Assembly (NCBI GenBank): GCA_965223865.1
Contig: OZ245020.1
Span: 800,001-864,000 of the forward strand
Reading direction: 5' to 3'
DNA: 64,000 nucleotides
Source: Nitrosarchaeum sp.
GTDB lineage: Archaea; Thermoproteota; Nitrososphaeria; Nitrososphaerales; Nitrosopumilaceae
Notes under the pieces: generated by a model
The model's input: the letters and a program-made list of their open reading frames with translations, nothing else
What the model was told of the DNA's origin: nothing
Databases searched by the model: none
In this document: positions 39,465 to 61,510 of the stretch, one piece after another
Layout: the number at the start of each line of letters is the position of its first letter
Position numbering within the stretch: the first letter of the stretch is position 1
Program-made: the position numbers and the translations under genes

Positions 39465-39536
39465 GGTACTCTGGCAGAACGGTTATGCGTGGGCCTGCAA
39501 AGCCTATACAAGGGGGTTCGACTCCCTCGGGTACCT
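39465..39536 (+). tRNA. tRNA-Cys(GCA)
   Basis: Acceptor GGTACTC/GGGTACC, anticodon loop CT-GCA-AA, GTTCGACT T loop, U73. Confidence 0.93.
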
Positions 39537-39950
39537 TTATTCAACTATAACTTGTCCGTCCATCCAAGGATGTAAAGTACAATAGTAATCATAAAGTCCA
39601 GTTTTTTCAAAAGTAAATGAAAATGACTGGTAGGGATCTAGGTAACCACTATCAAAAAGTTCTGTTGGAGAATCATATAATCCAGAAGTTACGCTGTGAA
39701 ATGCAGAGTCCTCATTTAGCCAAGTAACAGAATCTCCTTTATTGATCACAATTTTTGATGGAATATAACAAACATCGGTTTCCTCACATCCAGGACGAGA
39801 AACTTTTGTTGGCATGATAACATCAGCTGTGACTGACATATTTTCAGGTTCATTTTCCTCTTTGATTGAATTTTCAGTGGGAGTAGAAAATGCCATAATT
39901 AGAATTGCTGCAACAATTGCTGAACTAATGGATATTATTATTTTCTTCAA
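39537..39950 (-). CDS. Plastocyanin/azurin-like blue copper protein
   Basis: HSVTSG, YYCTLHPWM; N-terminal anchor. Confidence 0.93.
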   Translation of the reverse strand: MKKIIISISSAIVAAILIMAFSTPTENSIKEENEPENMSVTADVIMPTKVSRPGCEETDVCYIPSKIVINKGDSVTWLNEDSAFHSVTSGLYDSPTELFDSGYLDPYQSFSFTFEKTGLYDYYCTLHPWMDGQVIVE

Positions 39951-40025
39951 ATCACATCACATGTAAGATCTAGTTATTATGTAATTACCAAATTCTCTAA
40001 ATATATAGCATATTAGAAAACCTGA

Positions 40026-41777
40026 ATGACACAAAATGGTAATGGGTTATTAGAATATATTCCAGGTTCACAGACTTTGTTAGTTCAAAAAAATTCTAGT
40101 CCTCCTCTAGAAGGATTTTCAGAAAATATTAGAGGAAGTATTAAGGAATATGCAGAAAATTCAAAAAGTGAAGTAGAGAAGGGAAATAACTTTCTTCAAT
40201 GGGTTTTAACAAGAGTGTTTGAGGCTACTGAAGATGATGCTGCAGATGCAATTATTGATGGTGCAAATGATCTAGGAATTGATGCCTATCTTCCTGTAGA
40301 TTTTTCTGATAATACAATTCGCTTATTTCAATCAAAATATGGAACATCCCATTCTATTGAAGCAATAGCTAAATTCAAAGAAGACGCAAAACGTCTTCTA
40401 GGAAAAGATGTTACTAAAATGAGACCAGAGATTGCTCAACTTGTTACTAAAATTAAAGAAAAGAATTTGAAGATAAAATGTTGCTATGTAACTGATCAAA
40501 AAGTCGAGTATGAAGATGACTTGATTGAGGTAATTGATGTTGAAAAAATTATTCAAAAATTATGGGACAGGATTAAAAAACCTGCTGCAGGTAAAAAATC
40601 ATCAATAAAATTAGAGAGAATGCTCAGACATGAGAATACAATTTTAGGAATTTTAAAATTAAGAGAACTGACAGAATTCGTAAGTAAAAACAGAGATTAT
40701 GTTTTTGAATCAAATATCAGACAATGGATGCAATTTAAGACTACAGTAAATAAAGGACTAAGAGAAACCCTCCAAACAGATCCTGAGAAATTTTTCTATT
40801 ATAATAATGGGATTACAATAGTAGTAAGTGATTTTGAAGAATTGGGAGGCAACATGATAAAACTATATGCACCACAAATTGTTAATGGCGCACAAACATC
40901 AAATTCGATTCTTGATCATTCTAAGCGAACAAAAAACATGGATGGCTCAATGACAGTTACAATCATAAAAGCAGATGATGAACAGGAACAAAACAACATT
41001 ACAAAATACAGAAATTCTCAAAATTCTGTAAGAGGAAAAGATCTTGTTTCATTAATGGATTTTCATAAATCAATAAAATCTCAACTAAAAAACTGCGGAT
41101 ATTTTTACGAAATTCAAGCTGGTTCCTTTGACACAAAATCTAAATCTAAACAATGTGAATATGAGGGAGATTCTACATACAACAACTATTTACCCGATAA
41201 CCACAAAAAAGTAATTGTTGCAAAAGACGCAATTCAAGTACTTGTTGCAGGAATAGAACAGAGACCTACAGAAGCATATAGTTCTCCAGCTCAGTTTCTT
41301 CCAAGAGGTAGTAAATATGATGACATTTTTAATGACAATCTCAAAGACGATTACAGAATATTGTTTTATCCATATCTTGTCAAAGAATATGCAAAAAAGA
41401 TTCTAAAATATGGAAAACAAGGAGGGCATAAAACGAAAAGATATGCAACCTTATTTTATGTAGCTGTGTATTTTAGGATTCTTCATAAGAAAATCCTCGA
41501 AACAAGAGGAGATTTGAAGGTAGACATACGGAAATTAGAGCCCATATTTCGTAGTTTTAAGCTAAACTCTAGAATTTTAAAATTAACAGACATTATTGTG
41601 ACTAAATTTTTGGAAGATACTGTAGTAGATGATGAAATAGAATTAGCAAATACAAAACATAATTTCTTTTCACAGCACGTATGGAATGATACTATGCTAA
41701 GAGTAGTTGATAAAAAAATAAGACAAGAAGAAGATGAAATTTTAGCCCTAAAAAAACTAGTTAGTAATTTACTTTAA
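40026..41777 (+). CDS. AIPR family protein
   Basis: D.GIDA..FQSKY nuclease-like N-terminus; FESNIR, FFYYNNGIT, QIVNGAQT, NSQN. Confidence 0.9.
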   Translation: MTQNGNGLLEYIPGSQTLLVQKNSSPPLEGFSENIRGSIKEYAENSKSEVEKGNNFLQWVLTRVFEATEDDAADAIIDGANDLGIDAYLPVDFSDNTIRLFQSKYGTSHSIEAIAKFKEDAKRLLGKDVTKMRPEIAQLVTKIKEKNLKIKCCYVTDQKVEYEDDLIEVIDVEKIIQKLWDRIKKPAAGKKSSIKLERMLRHENTILGILKLRELTEFVSKNRDYVFESNIRQWMQFKTTVNKGLRETLQTDPEKFFYYNNGITIVVSDFEELGGNMIKLYAPQIVNGAQTSNSILDHSKRTKNMDGSMTVTIIKADDEQEQNNITKYRNSQNSVRGKDLVSLMDFHKSIKSQLKNCGYFYEIQAGSFDTKSKSKQCEYEGDSTYNNYLPDNHKKVIVAKDAIQVLVAGIEQRPTEAYSSPAQFLPRGSKYDDIFNDNLKDDYRILFYPYLVKEYAKKILKYGKQGGHKTKRYATLFYVAVYFRILHKKILETRGDLKVDIRKLEPIFRSFKLNSRILKLTDIIVTKFLEDTVVDDEIELANTKHNFFSQHVWNDTMLRVVDKKIRQEEDEILALKKLVSNLL

Positions 41778-53363: not shown

Positions 53364-53448
53364 GTTGGCGTTGTCAAGTTAGGAATGACGAAGGTCTGAA
53401 AAACCTTTCTGGTACCATGGATCGTGGGTTCAAGTCCCACCGCCAACG
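53364..53448 (+). tRNA. Atypical long-variable-arm tRNA, anticodon GAA, G73
   Basis: GTTGGCG/CGCCAAC, GTCA/TGAC, AAGGT-CTGAAAA-ACCTT, 16-nt V region, GTGGG-TTCAAGT-CCCAC. Confidence 0.85.
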
Positions 53449-53486: not shown

Positions 53487-53702
53487 TTAGTTCCTCTTTG
53501 CAACCAATAACATTCTACATCTTCCCAAAGTTCCTCTAGGTTTTGTTCTCAATACATAGTTACAGCATGGACAATACTTGCCATCCCATTTCATAAAAAT
53601 TTGGCAGTTGGTGCATCTCTTCTGTCCCAATTCATACCTGCTAGCCATTCCAATTCTGGTAGCTTTGTATCTTGTACATATTCCCTTACAGACATACCTC
53701 AA
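53487..53702 (-). CDS. Thaumarchaeal Cys-rich small Zn-binding protein, paralog 1
   Basis: CKGIC...RY..GQKRCTNC...WDG.YCPCC..LRTKPR. Confidence 0.85.
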   Translation of the reverse strand: MRYVCKGICTRYKATRIGMASRYELGQKRCTNCQIFMKWDGKYCPCCNYVLRTKPRGTLGRCRMLLVAKRN

Positions 53703-54486: not shown

Positions 54487-55254
54487 ATGAGTAACACATT
54501 GACTAGTCCATATACTCAGAGATTCGAAGATTTGCTAAAACCATTACAATCTAAATTATCAGAACTAGAACAAAACCTAGATTCTATTAGTGATGATCAT
54601 CCATACAAGCAGCAAGCTAGACTAGATGTTTTAGAAGAAATTAACAAAATTAAACAAGATATCGAAAACACTAAAAAGAATTTGGAATCTTCTAAAAAGA
54701 TGGAAATAATTCGTTCTGACAAATTACCTTCTAACATTCCAGATCATAATGTTTGGAATGATTGTTGGTATGATGAGGAAAGAAAGTTGTATGTCACATT
54801 TAACGAATATTTTATGGAAGGAGAAGATGCGTGGATACGCCCTCATCAGAAACAATACACAGAAGAGACAGGGATTAAAGCAGCCATTATTTTACCTGAA
54901 CAGATAGAATTTAGATTTGGATATCCTGCTATGTTACAGAAGGATATACAAGGACGAAATGTTTCGTATCTTCTTCCTACACTATCGGATTCAATGTTAA
55001 CGACACAAATGTTGGAATCTAGATTCAAACCAAAAACACAAGATGAAGCTATTCTATACTCTGTTGAATCAGAAGAATGGATTGAAGTTTTGGGAACCAA
55101 ATTATCAGAAAGAGAATATTTGTTGGCCTGTGAAGTATTACCTCATTTGGTAAAGACACCAATTGAGGTTGCTAAATTTATTCATGACAGACCGTATGAT
55201 CCAGTGTTGTACAAACAACAAATGGAGCAAATGAATCAAACAGTACAAAATTGA
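54487..55254 (+). CDS. Orphan protein with N-terminal coiled coil
   Basis: Intact 255-aa ORF, GGAGG RBS, no family recognised. Confidence 0.75.
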   Translation: MSNTLTSPYTQRFEDLLKPLQSKLSELEQNLDSISDDHPYKQQARLDVLEEINKIKQDIENTKKNLESSKKMEIIRSDKLPSNIPDHNVWNDCWYDEERKLYVTFNEYFMEGEDAWIRPHQKQYTEETGIKAAIILPEQIEFRFGYPAMLQKDIQGRNVSYLLPTLSDSMLTTQMLESRFKPKTQDEAILYSVESEEWIEVLGTKLSEREYLLACEVLPHLVKTPIEVAKFIHDRPYDPVLYKQQMEQMNQTVQN

Positions 55255-55315
55255 ACATACCTAAACTAAGACAACAGTAATCTTTTTACATCTTAGAATC
55301 ATATATCCCGTAAGG

Positions 55316-55406
55316 CGGTAGAGGTGGGATTTGAACCCACGAATGTCTACGGGAAACATTACCGGTTATCAGCCAGTCGCTTTTGACCAAGCTGAGCCAC
55401 TCTACC
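55316..55406 (-). tRNA. Atypical long-variable-arm tRNA, anticodon GAT, G73
   Basis: GGTAGAG/CTCTACC, GCT/AGC, ACTGG-CTGATAA-CCGGT, 20-nt V region with 7-bp stem, GTGGG-TTCAAAT-CCCAC; TTAAATA about 25 nt upstream. Confidence 0.87.
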
Positions 55407-55444
55407 AATATTTCATTACAAAAATTCTATTTAATCACGTGGTT

Positions 55445-56134
55445 CTAGGCAAATCCTCTAGAAGGAGAATCTGTTCTGAACCTATTTTCATTCATTCTTG
55501 CTGCATCTACAATCTTTCCTGCAGAAGCAGGATGATTATGTAATTGTTCTAAGAATTTCTGATCTGCCTTTTCTTGAACGGAAGGCATCATTTTATCAAA
55601 TCCTAAAATGTTCTTGTGTTGTACATCCAAGTATTCTTGTTGTGATTGTGGCGTATCCATTATGTGTAATCCTCTGTCAATTGAGGATGCGTTGTTTAGA
55701 GAATCTCCTGGATTCATCATCATGAACAGCTTGAATAATCTCCATATTACTGAGATTCTCCCTTACAATCTGACTTTTTGGTAACCTATCCCCTGAAATG
55801 TATTCCAGTTTAATTTGATCCAAAACATCACTTAGTGGTTGGTGTGACTCCAGATGAACCTGCATCACTGGCATGTCTACTGTCTGACCTTCAACAGTTA
55901 TGGGAACCATCTTCGTGATATTGTAATTTTAATTCTGTCTTCAATTACTCTTAGAATATCAAAGAACTGGCCCATCTTTTGTGCCTGATTTTCTTCTGAT
56001 AAATTGACAAAGTTGGTTGGGATTATGCTATAACTGTACTTGAATTGTAGTTTTGATTCTACTGGTTTGTTGTTTTGATTATTCTGTTGTTTGTTATTCT
56101 TTTTACCTTTAGAAAGGATTGAAATCGATTTCAC
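55445..56134 (-). pseudogene. Fragmented gene(s), N-terminus resembling a VirB4-like conjugation ATPase
   Basis: Three overlapping short ORFs; YSIIPTNFVNLSEENQ..K...F...IKITISR pattern; no P-loop left. Confidence 0.4.
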
Positions 56135-58292: not shown

Positions 58293-60266
58293 TCAATTAT
58301 CTTGTTGGTATTTTCTAATAATCCAAAATATGACAAGTACCATCAGCAAAAATACTAAAACTATGACTATCCATGATTCTAGCACTCCATCAAATATCAA
58401 ATGTTCTGCATCAGGCGGTTGTGGATTTAGTTGTGTTTCATCAATTTCTGGCAAAATTGTAGATGCTTTTCCATTCCAAATGTTGATTGCGACAATATTT
58501 AGCTCGTCTAATTGATGTTCTTGTGGTACTGAGATTACACAAGTGTTTGGTGATTTTATTTTAAAGCATTTTGGTAAATTGTCTTCAGTAATTGTAACAT
58601 CATTTATCTTCAATGATTTTATTTTTCCAAAATTATCATCGTATTGATACAGCAAAACCCTAGGATTTGCAGGATCTCTTTTGATGTCTAGTATATTATC
58701 ATCATTCATGTTTATCTCATATGAATAATCTATAGAGAAATCATACCACGTCTGATCAAATGTGTTTGTGATTTCATCGATTCCATTATTTGCCGTAATT
58801 GATATGGTAAATGGCGATAGTGCATCCAAACCAGTTGTCAATGGGATTGGCAGTATTGCGTCTTGAGTGTCCAACAGATACTTGTTTGAAACATCAGTCA
58901 CATCATCATTTGAAAACGTTTGATCTGCTATCATGTCATATTGTGTAAATGATGACAGGATTCGTCTAGTTTTGTCTATGGATGTAGAACCAAAACCAGA
59001 TTTTTCAATCTCATCCAAAGTGTAAATGTCATGTCCATTGACTATAGCAATTGGATTTTTGTCAATGTCTAGACCGGTAATTATCTGGGAGAATCCATCA
59101 TCTTGCGTGTCAAACAAAATTTTATCATGCATGTATCCGTCAATGTATTGTGTGCCTGAAATGTCTAGTCTTGGGATGATTTCTAGGATAATTTCAATAG
59201 AACTGTCTTGATTTCCTTCTGAATCAACTGCTTTTACACCCAGAGAATTATGGAAAAAACTTTCAGGATACATGTATTCCGTATTTGTAAGATGAGTAAC
59301 TTTATGTCCTGCAAAATATGATGACTGCAACGTGTCAAACACAGTAGCATTTTCAAACCTAGGAATGTTCAGTACAGGATCCACCAAAACATCATACAAA
59401 CCTGGATATTCAAACTTGATTTTGCCATATCCTGCCTTTACAAAGTTTGCAGTCTCGTGTTGTTCTACCTCAAATGGAATTATTTCTGGAAATTCAGTCA
59501 GAATCAATTGATCTGCAATGTCTTCAGATTTTTGTACAGGTGATTCGTTTGTTATTATTCCAACATCATGTGCCTCATCCCAAACTAATTGAATATCATT
59601 AGAATAATCTGTATCAGATACAGTGCCGTCTAGCAGATCATACTCCCAAGGGTCTGCATCCCAAGTAGAGTAAAAATAATTATTTATTTTGGAACGTCTA
59701 TCTTCATGAATACCTATCTCATCATCTGGATTTTCATCCGTACTCTCAGAACCAAAATAATGCAGTGCAACACCTATCCTGTCATGAATAGCTAACTTTT
59801 CATCATCAGACAGCACGGGATATACATATGTGTCATAGATTGGCTCGTATTCCACAACTAGAACATTTGTTGAGTTGATGTTCTGATCTATTTGAGGTAC
59901 AATGTTGTAAAGTGTTGTGGTATATTCTATCTCATGCTCTCCAATGTCATCTAGTGATGTTGCATTGTACACTGTGTTACCACTACCATAATCAAATGTG
60001 TAAGTCCATGGTAAGAATCCCGATACTTTCATTGTGTTTATGCAACTTGCAGATTCACAAAAGAATTCATCCTCTAAAACCAACGGATCATAACTTTTCT
60101 CAATCTCTACAAATAAGGTGCCGACTCTGTCGTTTTTCCACTTGTATGATGGATTGTGGACCACATTAATTGCATCCCAGACATAATAATATTCATCAAG
60201 GTTTCTTGATATGTAACCAGCTTCTTCTGTAAACTCATATCCTACAGTTTCCATTGTGACTACCAC
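58293..60266 (-). CDS. Large acidic C-terminally anchored surface protein, probably 5'-truncated
   Basis: C-terminal TM and basic tail; no signal peptide at ORF start. Confidence 0.65.
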   Translation of the reverse strand: MVVTMETVGYEFTEEAGYISRNLDEYYYVWDAINVVHNPSYKWKNDRVGTLFVEIEKSYDPLVLEDEFFCESASCINTMKVSGFLPWTYTFDYGSGNTVYNATSLDDIGEHEIEYTTTLYNIVPQIDQNINSTNVLVVEYEPIYDTYVYPVLSDDEKLAIHDRIGVALHYFGSESTDENPDDEIGIHEDRRSKINNYFYSTWDADPWEYDLLDGTVSDTDYSNDIQLVWDEAHDVGIITNESPVQKSEDIADQLILTEFPEIIPFEVEQHETANFVKAGYGKIKFEYPGLYDVLVDPVLNIPRFENATVFDTLQSSYFAGHKVTHLTNTEYMYPESFFHNSLGVKAVDSEGNQDSSIEIILEIIPRLDISGTQYIDGYMHDKILFDTQDDGFSQIITGLDIDKNPIAIVNGHDIYTLDEIEKSGFGSTSIDKTRRILSSFTQYDMIADQTFSNDDVTDVSNKYLLDTQDAILPIPLTTGLDALSPFTISITANNGIDEITNTFDQTWYDFSIDYSYEINMNDDNILDIKRDPANPRVLLYQYDDNFGKIKSLKINDVTITEDNLPKCFKIKSPNTCVISVPQEHQLDELNIVAINIWNGKASTILPEIDETQLNPQPPDAEHLIFDGVLESWIVIVLVFLLMVLVIFWIIRKYQQDN

Positions 60267-60748: not shown

Positions 60749-61510
60749 TTAAGATTTTATTTTTCGTGGACCTGTCTTACCATCTACAGAAATTATTGCG
60801 CCAAACTTGTCAAATTGGACATGCTTGATGCGAAGCGATAACAGTTCACTTGGTCTGGTGCCAGCTTCATAGTGTACCGCAATCGGTGCCTTTACTCTGT
60901 AATTCTTTTCGACAGCCTTTATCAACTGTCTGTATTCCAAGTCCGTCAAGAGTTCTTCTCTTACTAGATAGTCTTTTACTTGTCGTGCCTTGACTCCTTT
61001 TGTTTCGGGAGGATCTCCTACATCTTTGAAATCCCTTGAGCCAAGCTTAAACCATCTAAAAAATAATTTTAGTATCTTTTTGTGATCATAAGTGTAATTG
61101 GTCTCTTGACCTTTCTCATTTCCGTACATACTCATAATCTTAAAGACGACCTCATCAATGTCAGATTTTGTAGCATCTGTCCAGTCTTTTTTCAATATTC
61201 TTGAAAGGTTCAGGACTGTCTGCAAATGCTTTAGTCTAGTTGATTTTGCAAGAGATTCTTGTACCATGTGTTGATTGTATTTTTTTATCAGTCTGGCGTT
61301 GTACTCTGAAAGATCTCTGTCAATTACCTCATAAACTCTCTCTAGTTTTGTATTATATGGATGGATATCAAATCCTTCGCTTTTCTTTGATGTCTTTGAT
61401 ATGCGGAGTTGCTTTACTATGCTAGAGGGAATTCCAAGATATACTGTTTCTCCATTTCCGCCAACCCATGGCTTTTTGACTGAAAGAAATGGACTTTGTG
61501 TTTTTCTCAT
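60749..61510 (-). pseudogene. Truncated tyrosine integrase with fused AbrB-like N-terminus
   Basis: YEAGTRPSELL.LRIKHV, VDGKTG.R present; HxxR and catalytic Tyr region missing. Confidence 0.85.

Follow-up and report, generated by a model that had tools for sequence, protein, structure and literature searches.

The stretch of DNA analyzed here, referred to as the window, is 64,000 nt in length and corresponds to C1:800001-864000 of a 2.01-Mb genome that is 99.98% complete. It contains a tRNA gene with a long variable arm and the anticodon GAU, designated tRNA(GAU), and approximately 2 kb away a sister gene with the anticodon GAA, designated tRNA(GAA). The features of the region are as follows, with positions counted from the first nucleotide of the window.

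55316..55406, minus strand: class-II-shaped tRNA gene of 91 nt with anticodon GAU and G73 (G1 at 55406, G73 at 55316)
55368..55370, minus strand: anticodon GAU (GAT) in the 7-nt loop CUGAUAA, with U33 and A37
55341..55360, minus strand: variable region of 20 nt, with a 7-bp stem (one U-G pair), the 5-nt loop CCCGU and one unpaired C before the T stem
55428..55434, minus strand: TATA-like box TTAAATA at -28 to -22 from G1, promoter-like by position and conservation
53364..53448, plus strand: sister class-II tRNA gene with anticodon GAA, G73 and a 16-nt variable region (Rfam 54.1 bits; family covariance model R1 84.6 bits)
54487..55254, plus strand: 255-aa ORF converging on tRNA(GAU), with the same cassette in congener G004 and in genome G001
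55445..55723, minus strand: 92-aa ORF directly upstream of tRNA(GAU) on the same strand, with the same cassette in G004
53487..53702, minus strand: 71-aa ORF just downstream of tRNA(GAA), 91% identical beside a G004 relative, with two paralogues in the window
60749..61510, minus strand: integrase-like ORF, listed for context

The acceptor stem of tRNA(GAU) is GGTAGAG/CTCTACC, followed by T8 and G9. The D stem has three standard pairs and a C13/A22 mismatch, with an 11-nt D loop and G26 following. The anticodon stem ACTGG/CCGGT closes the loop CTGATAA, the T arm is GTGGG-TTCAAAT-CCCAC, and the discriminator G is followed by CCT so that CCA is not encoded. The acceptor and T stems give the 7/5 arrangement of the ordinary cloverleaf, and U8, G18-G19, the T loop and the 7-nt anticodon loop are all canonical. 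The anticodon on the minus strand, the fully paired 7-bp variable stem, the three-pair D stem, the acceptor sequence and G73 followed by CCT had all been described in an earlier note on this DNA, and each is present in the sequence. ARAGORN called tRNA-Ile(gat) at 55314-55406 of the window. The earlier note had also proposed a comparison with covariance models, which gave a match to Rfam tRNA RF00005 of 52.5 bits (gathering score 29; E 2e-8 over the 64 kb of the window), spanning the whole model from 1 to 71. The family covariance model R1 described below gave 75.6 bits. The minimum free energy of the single sequence was -33.5 kcal/mol compared to -22.0±3.3 kcal/mol for 200 shuffled sequences (z -3.49), none of which was as stable. 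The acceptor, 7-bp variable and T helices are present in that fold, and the D and anticodon part deviates from the cloverleaf. With a score far over threshold, an intact cloverleaf, a promoter-like box and compensatory changes across the family, it is hardly credible that the locus is a decaying duplicate or a chance look-alike, even though it is an additional copy within accessory DNA. Judged from its sequence, the locus is a real supernumerary tRNA gene that appears to be under selective maintenance.

The host genome has 42 Rfam tRNA matches, several of which are long owing to introns. ARAGORN applied to the whole genome located a normal tRNA-Ile(GAU) (C1:695779-695867), which is interrupted after position 37 by a 12-nt intron and has A73 and the variable loop AGGTC, as well as a normal tRNA-Phe(GAA) with A73. 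The four host tRNA-Ser (UGA, GCU, CGA and GGA) all have G73, and the host tRNA-Leu set has A73 throughout. Since normal Ile(GAU) and Phe(GAA) genes and full Ser and Leu sets are present, tRNA(GAU) is an extra gene. A free-standing 3' piece of a tRNA-Leu, comprising variable arm, T arm and the 3' strand of the acceptor, lies elsewhere in the genome (C1:694320-694375, plus strand) and may be a leftover from an integration event. The genome encodes one SerRS, identified by a single Seryl_tRNA_N match. A dedicated extra synthetase was considered and rejected on that count, with five class-II core matches read by their size as the usual enzymes. The sequences give no indication of genetic-code reassignment, since the normal tRNAs are present and 29 homologues of the neighboring 255-aa protein do not vary at the Phe and Ile positions.

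In its anticodon GAU with A37, tRNA(GAU) is like a canonical archaeal tRNA-Ile(GAU), which would have A73 and a short variable loop of 4-5 nt where this gene has G73 and a 20-nt variable region. It is also unlike tRNA-Sec, for which a 9/4 or 8/5 fold, a long D stem and the anticodon UCA are expected; the gene has the 7/5 fold, a 3-bp D stem and GAU. One explanation for the long variable region is that it is a non-canonical intron, in which case the mature RNA would be an ordinary class-I tRNA-Ile. Thaumarchaeota have numerous non-canonical tRNA introns according to PMC8450103, and the 16-nt insert in the variable loop of the host tRNA-Val(CAC) has the string TTTCCCG in common with the arm. For these reasons a script was written to scan for bulge-helix-bulge (BHB) motifs, defined by a central helix of 4 bp between two bulges of 3 nt and by helices on either side, using host Val(CAC) and the normal Ile gene as controls. 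The 16-nt intron at 44/45 of Val(CAC), excision of which leaves AGGTC, and the 37/38 intron of the normal tRNA-Ile were both recovered. In tRNA(GAU) and the sister tRNA(GAA) no motif was found that would excise the arm; those returned were spurious, since cutting at them would remove the anticodon or the T arm. Furthermore, the variable stem is fully paired and therefore no loop of 4-5 nt can remain after excision, and an intron would leave G73 and the presence of a normal Ile gene unaccounted for. Thus, splicing out of the variable region, which the earlier note had named as an outcome that would speak against its proposal, finds no support in the scan, and the intron explanation is very improbable. 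The variable arm of tRNA(GAU) probably stays in the mature RNA, since no excising BHB motif was found and the arm is a perfect hairpin. The Val(CAC) gene used as a control (C1:1080626-1080716, minus strand, 91 nt, with its 16-nt BHB intron in the variable loop) is the sole tRNA-Val(CAC) of the genome; long Val(CAC) genes are present in G004 and G392 too.

The long arm and G73 of tRNA(GAU) are those of a tRNA-Ser, combined with an anticodon that is neither NGA nor GCU. The earlier note had recognized the combination of class-II shape, Ile anticodon and G73, in which the two serine determinants that reviews rank strongest accompany the anticodon of another amino acid. The body was further described there as a Ser(GCT) type, which is not borne out by comparison with the host genes. 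Global identities of tRNA(GAU) are 69, 68 and 66% to host Leu(UAG), Leu(CAG) and Leu(GAG), 64, 63 and 58.5% to host Ser(UGA), Ser(GCU) and Ser(CGA), and 57% to the normal host tRNA-Ile. The D arm (3 bp with an 11-nt loop) and the entire T arm agree with those of host tRNA-Leu, and in full-length BLAST comparisons Leu(UAG) genes came first, at 71-73%. Three of the four host Ser bodies have a 4-bp D stem with a 9-nt loop, and the same proportion have a G-rich T stem and a GCAA variable loop; the 3-bp D stem, 11-nt D loop and Leu-identical T arm of tRNA(GAU) do not conform to that pattern. Model R1 ranks host Ser(GCU) (74.5 bits) over Leu(UAG) (67.9 bits). The gene is not a tRNA-Leu either by the rule established for Haloferax in PMC9976931, having G73 and the variable loop CCCGU compared to UCAG in the host Leu genes. 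The body, as compared by sequence, is of a generic class-II type slightly nearer to host Leu than to Ser(GCU).

The search for relatives of the two genes indicates that tRNA(GAU) belongs to a diversified family. BLAST of tRNA(GAA) against 60 relatives led to two loci of congener G004 that share its 3' end. Both have a long tRNA(GAA) with the same acceptor, G73 and conserved flanks, and their D, anticodon and variable stems have diverged from those of the window gene yet are compensated. A pattern based on the acceptor and T arm, applied to 401 genomes of the order, matched in five genomes and added new members in G384 (GAU) and G392 (two GAA), with a match in G040 lacking a tRNA call. A pattern extending from the anticodon loop to the T loop, applied to 301 genomes of the family, returned many chance matches together with clear members by the dozen, of which a single published genome has as many as four. 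That pattern forced the anticodon to GAA or GAT; the covariance model R1, built from 30 members, is blind to anticodon choice, and the search with it added members with GAA, one with GAG and one further with GAU. In total, 40 distinct members were parsed from Nitrosopumilaceae-type genomes and one viral contig, with none taken from three unpublished genomes. The anticodon is GAA, the commoner type, in 35 members, GAU in four and GAG in one, the GAA share being inflated because most members were obtained with the forcing pattern; the 17 members from outside it comprise 12 with GAA, four with GAU and one with GAG. Position 73 is G in 38 of the 40 and A in two, and position 33 is U in 38 and C in two. 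The members with C33 instead of the near-universal U33 are the GAU members L082 (429-514, minus strand) and L282, from G004 and G001, which have the loop CCGATAC. The variable regions of nearly all parsed members form hairpins of 3-7 bp that differ in sequence, with no stable fold for that of the window tRNA(GAA), and many other members have a Ser-like D arm with a 4-bp stem and 9-nt loop. A serine tRNA body retargeted to Ile codons had been proposed; instead of the product of a single C35-to-A change, tRNA(GAU) is by sequence comparison one member of a family with the anticodons GAA, GAU and GAG that is undescribed so far in the literature searched. No account of such tRNAs in Thaumarchaeota or Nitrosopumilus was found in full-text searches of open articles.

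In an alignment of 30 members, 96.5% of the cells in the four stems are paired, a value that is partly circular and inflated because stems had to be mostly paired for a member to pass the parsing scripts. That circularity does not extend to the number of compensatory pair types. Changes on both sides were found for 17 of 21 pairs, and all four stems contain compensatory changes. The alignment has 152 cells with both-side changes compared to 40.5±5.2 after shuffling and 17-27 when the partners were slid. Position 37 is A in all four GAU members, G in the GAG member and, among those with GAA, A in 31 and G in four. The co-variation of base 37 with base 36 according to decoding rules suits use on the ribosome.

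Boxes similar to the TATA-like box of tRNA(GAU) precede the host tRNA genes, at a distance greater by a few bases. In the G004 cassettes, the segment upstream of the tRNA is conserved even where the tRNA bodies differ, as are the cassette flanks; the comparison with G001 shows the tRNA without flanks. The -1 base of tRNA(GAU) can pair with base 73, as it can in 30 of the 42 host tRNA matches, a complementarity that appears to be a general habit of the tRNA genes of this genome.

With R1 at E <= 1e-14, matches were found in 13 of 121 genomes of the family, each at least 95% complete. Seven of the matches are 84 nt long with 75.4-75.5 bits and are the sole match in five genomes; the one that was checked is a tRNA-Ser(GCU). 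Strong family members are thus present in eight of the 121 genomes, and stricter R1 filters drop weaker members such as the window tRNA(GAU) at 75.6 bits. At the level of the order with E <= 3e-15, matches were confined to the family of the window, in four of 39 genomes in addition to the genome itself, with none in 111 genomes of 13 other sampled families. The bacterial origin offered in the earlier note as one possibility finds no support in this restriction to the archaeal family of the window at the threshold used, in the archaeal-type TATA-like box or in the absence of an encoded CCA. The idea of a Ser(GCU) body of bacterial origin was therefore only partly right, the body itself being slightly nearer to Leu (69%) than to Ser(GCU) (63%). 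The viral origin offered as the other possibility has some support, as a link to viral or mobile DNA seen in integrase-like genes, a patchy region and a viral contig.

The 5.5-kb region around both tRNA genes is a mosaic of which pieces recur in G004, G006 and G001. Genomes G003 and G005 match mainly a copper-protein gene and repeats; G003 matches over one short piece further upstream too, and in neither does a match cross the tRNA cassette. The copper-binding genes of the plastocyanin type found within the window agree with an ammonia-oxidizing archaeon as host, and so do the names of the sources of 255-aa protein relatives given below. The cassette of 255-aa ORF, tRNA and 92-aa ORF has two occurrences in G004, one of which contains GAA and the other GAU, and recurs in G001 with a near-identical GAU gene, and the genome of the window has two paralogous cassettes in which no tRNA lies between the ORFs. 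Members of multi-copy ORF families lie near the tRNA genes in the window. The integrase-like ORF has paralogues adjoining tRNA-Thr, tRNA-Glu, tRNA-Met and tRNA-Ser genes elsewhere in the genome. A 657-aa ORF (58293-60266, minus strand) has six paralogous places in the genome (57-95% identity) and together with small ORFs and integrase-like genes marks repeated accessory modules. Elsewhere in the window (39465-41777) a tRNA-Cys is closely followed by an AIPR gene of the abortive-infection type, a possible defense island at a tRNA gene. Searches of Pfam and PHROGs returned no family for the 255-aa, 92-aa, 71-aa, 142-aa and 657-aa ORFs. The 255-aa protein, which belongs to a multi-copy family found solely in Nitrosopumilaceae-type sources (named Nitrosarchaeum and Nitrosopumilus), has a confident predicted fold (pLDDT 89.6) that combines an alpha/beta domain and, at the N terminus, a long helical hairpin. 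Foldseek against the PDB returned nothing at E <= 0.001 for the model. VIA-align matched only the N-terminal helical hairpin, with a generic Z of approximately 8-9 and the SerRS arm among many unrelated helical proteins.

The contexts of family members in other genomes include DDE transposases (G392), Kelch, TPR and Fic genes (G004) and a multicopper oxidase beside housekeeping genes (G513). When a recurrent partner gene was sought in seven contexts, only two small ORF groups recurred in at least three. One member is located on a 6.6-kb viral contig of IMG/VR between a 377-aa ORF and a 642-aa ORF, the latter matching head-morphogenesis and minor-head PHROGs (E 1e-8) and, weakly, Phage_Mu_F. 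A check against viral tRNAs suggested by the earlier note thus had a divided outcome: the narrow pattern for acceptor type (a) had no matches in IMG/VR, whereas a looser pattern matched at least 115 loci, and among the matches listed most are ordinary tRNA-Ser(UGA) and one is the family member. The IMG/VR loci L163, L166 and L258 hold genes resembling tRNA-Ser of the bacterial type, which have a long arm, a D arm like that of bacterial tRNA-Ser, and CCA or CC after G73. With the loop CTGAAAA their anticodon reads as GAA, and they could be phage-borne bacterial counterparts of the same idea. In view of the patchy distribution, the mosaic region, the integrase-like and transposase neighbors and the viral contig, the family is placed, on genomic context, in the flexible, mobile-element-rich fraction of these genomes.

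Identity rules established in other archaea and in eukaryotes, lineages other than the one studied here, were used to evaluate which amino acid the gene is likely to accept. According to reviews (including PMC9976931 and PMC7609411), G73 is a strong determinant and G30-C40 a weaker one for archaeal SerRS, human SerRS relies mainly on the long arm and G73, and the exchange of A73 for G73 switches Leu tRNAs to serine acceptance. LeuRS of Haloferax is reported to require A73 and specific bases of the variable loop (PMC9976931). Reviews include A73 in the Ile and Phe identity sets and name the anticodon as a major determinant for IleRS and PheRS. The pair G30-C40 is present in tRNA(GAU). Charging by SerRS is considered most likely, because the gene is without A73 and a host-type Leu variable loop and possesses the long arm and G73. 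In the proposed sequence of events, tRNA(GAU) would be transcribed from its own TATA-like promoter and processed as are host tRNAs, the variable arm would be retained, and the mature tRNA would be charged with serine by the single SerRS of the cell and function on the ribosome in decoding AUC and AUU. When expressed, it would then insert serine at isoleucine codons, and its sisters would do so at Phe and Leu codons, which would make tRNA(GAU) a passenger of mobile DNA that mistranslates, or is toxic, under certain conditions. The reading of tRNA(GAU) as a functional AUY decoder with a serine identity set, probably serine-charged and acting as a conditional mistranslator on mobile DNA, is assigned a probability of roughly 0.42.

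Several observations are at odds with serine charging. The anticodons are confined to G-A-N, a narrow range that is not expected since SerRS ignores the anticodon, and the anticodon itself could be the charging determinant for PheRS or IleRS. UUY and AUY together make up approximately 11% of host codons (about 110 per 1000), and therefore serine insertion would be broadly harmful, to a carrier virus as well, unless tightly controlled. A73 is found in two members, C33 takes the place of U33 in two of the GAU members, and the body is nearer to Leu. A broader proposal, regarded as doubtful, is that mobile elements and viruses of ammonia-oxidizing archaea carry a family of serine-accepting tRNAs aimed at UUY, AUY and CUY that would serve as a mistranslation weapon or suicide device when switched on, for example in host takeover, abortive infection or element addiction. 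If true, it would give the Archaea their first known natural system of tRNAs that mistranslate sense codons.

The restricted anticodons, with base 37 tuned to each, would be more readily understood if tRNA(GAU) were charged with isoleucine and its sisters with phenylalanine or leucine through recognition of the anticodon, on which IleRS and PheRS rely strongly according to reviews, the genes then being oddly shaped spare isoacceptors. Such isoacceptors might, for instance, stand in for host tRNAs with G34-A35 anticodons under attack by a nuclease or another factor that they themselves escape, as is the case for some phage tRNAs. The member among viral head genes is in accord with that use, and phage tRNAs that evade tRNA-targeting defenses provide a precedent (PMC10264068, PMC11464382). 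Cognate charging is nonetheless judged unlikely in view of G73 in 38 of 40 members where host Ile, Phe and Leu tRNAs have A73, and one body type bears different anticodons. In addition, no tRNA nuclease was identified, and compared to the host both the island and the viral contig make less use of UUY and AUY (small samples of approximately 1,800 codons each), so that codon supply is not an obvious need. Charging with leucine alone, as for the nev-tRNAs of nematodes, would result in a mild substitution of leucine for isoleucine and could be argued from the D and T arms that match host tRNA-Leu, the top full-length BLAST matches to Leu(UAG) at 71-73%, the member with the Leu anticodon GAG and the two with A73. 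It is quite improbable for tRNA(GAU) itself, which has G73 and the loop CCCGU compared to UCAG in host Leu genes, when archaeal LeuRS needs A73 and specific loop bases (PMC9976931, for Haloferax).

A role outside translation, in which the tRNA-shaped RNA serves as a recombination target, primer, decoy or regulator on mobile elements, would be in keeping with the patchy and multi-copy occurrence near transposases, integrase-like genes and hypothetical cassettes, with C33 in two GAU members, and with the linkage of bacterial allo-tRNA-like genes to transposons and toxin-antitoxin systems (PMC7609411). Such a role appears improbable, however, since the anticodon loop is canonical in 38 of 40 members, bases 36 and 37 co-vary, and the four stems and T loop are conserved as in working tRNAs. 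Repeats of the attachment-site kind were sought for tRNA-Met, tRNA-Cys and tRNA-Ser(GCU) over 110 kb, and only chance matches of 12-13 nt were found.

The serine-charged reading has its nearest parallels in tRNAs that combine a class-II shape with anticodons of other amino acids. The nev-tRNAs of nematodes are class-II tRNAs with Gly or Ile anticodons that are charged with leucine (PMC3333845, PMC4033280), and the table in the 2014 review of these tRNAs has no archaeal case (PMC4033280). In common with them, tRNA(GAU) has a long-arm class-II shape with an anticodon of neither Leu nor Ser, namely the class-I anticodon for Ile, and belongs to a lineage-restricted family that is extra to the normal set. 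The nev-tRNAs are encoded in eukaryotic nuclei, Leu-charged and endowed with the anticodons CCC and UAU for rare codons (PMC3333845, PMC4033280), whereas the present family is archaeal, nearly always has G73 and addresses the very common codons UUY, AUY and CUY, and the variable loop of tRNA(GAU) is not of the Leu type. The allo-tRNAs likewise have serine identity elements (long arm and G73) on non-serine anticodons and a patchy distribution, with a suspected link to transposons and toxin-antitoxin systems, and some insert serine at Leu codons in E. coli (PMC7609411). They are bacterial, have a 12-bp acceptor/T domain arranged as 8/4 or 9/3 and span 35 of the 64 anticodons (PMC7609411), in contrast to tRNA(GAU) with its normal 7/5 cloverleaf in an archaeon and a family with G-A-N anticodons only. 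Compared with host tRNA-Ser and tRNA-Leu, the long arm and G73 are shared with Ser, and the D arm, T arm and best identity with Leu; the anticodon is of neither, the variable stem has 7 bp compared to 3-5, and the variable loop is neither GCAA (Ser) nor UCAG (Leu).

A human tRNA-Ser variant with a Phe anticodon mistranslates (PMC9956149), and since SerRS does not read the anticodon, the present family is predicted to have the same effect, with serine placed at Phe- or Ile-type codons. Such mutants are single-base variants of bona fide tRNA-Ser (PMC9956149), in contrast to a diverged, conserved family with acceptor stems and variable arms of its own. Defense-evading phage tRNAs are similarly extra, carried by viruses or mobile elements and provided with particular anticodons, although they keep their cognate identity and are altered mainly in the anticodon loop (PMC10264068, PMC11464382), where here the whole shape class and the discriminator differ. 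In those parts of a survey of Thaumarchaeota mobile elements that deal with tRNA genes (PMC6563490), the genes appear solely as integration targets. By analogy, the family would work at most like nev-tRNAs or allo-tRNAs, since it departs from the allo-tRNAs in architecture and from the nev-tRNAs in taxon and identity. Gene finders, ARAGORN among them, label such genes plain tRNA-Ile or tRNA-Phe, a point of importance for annotation. The archaeal family would be a third, independent case in which class-II tRNAs have class-I anticodons, this one in culturable organisms, and makes it possible to test whether natural tRNAs deliberately mis-assign common sense codons and how archaeal SerRS, LeuRS, IleRS and PheRS distinguish class-II shapes.
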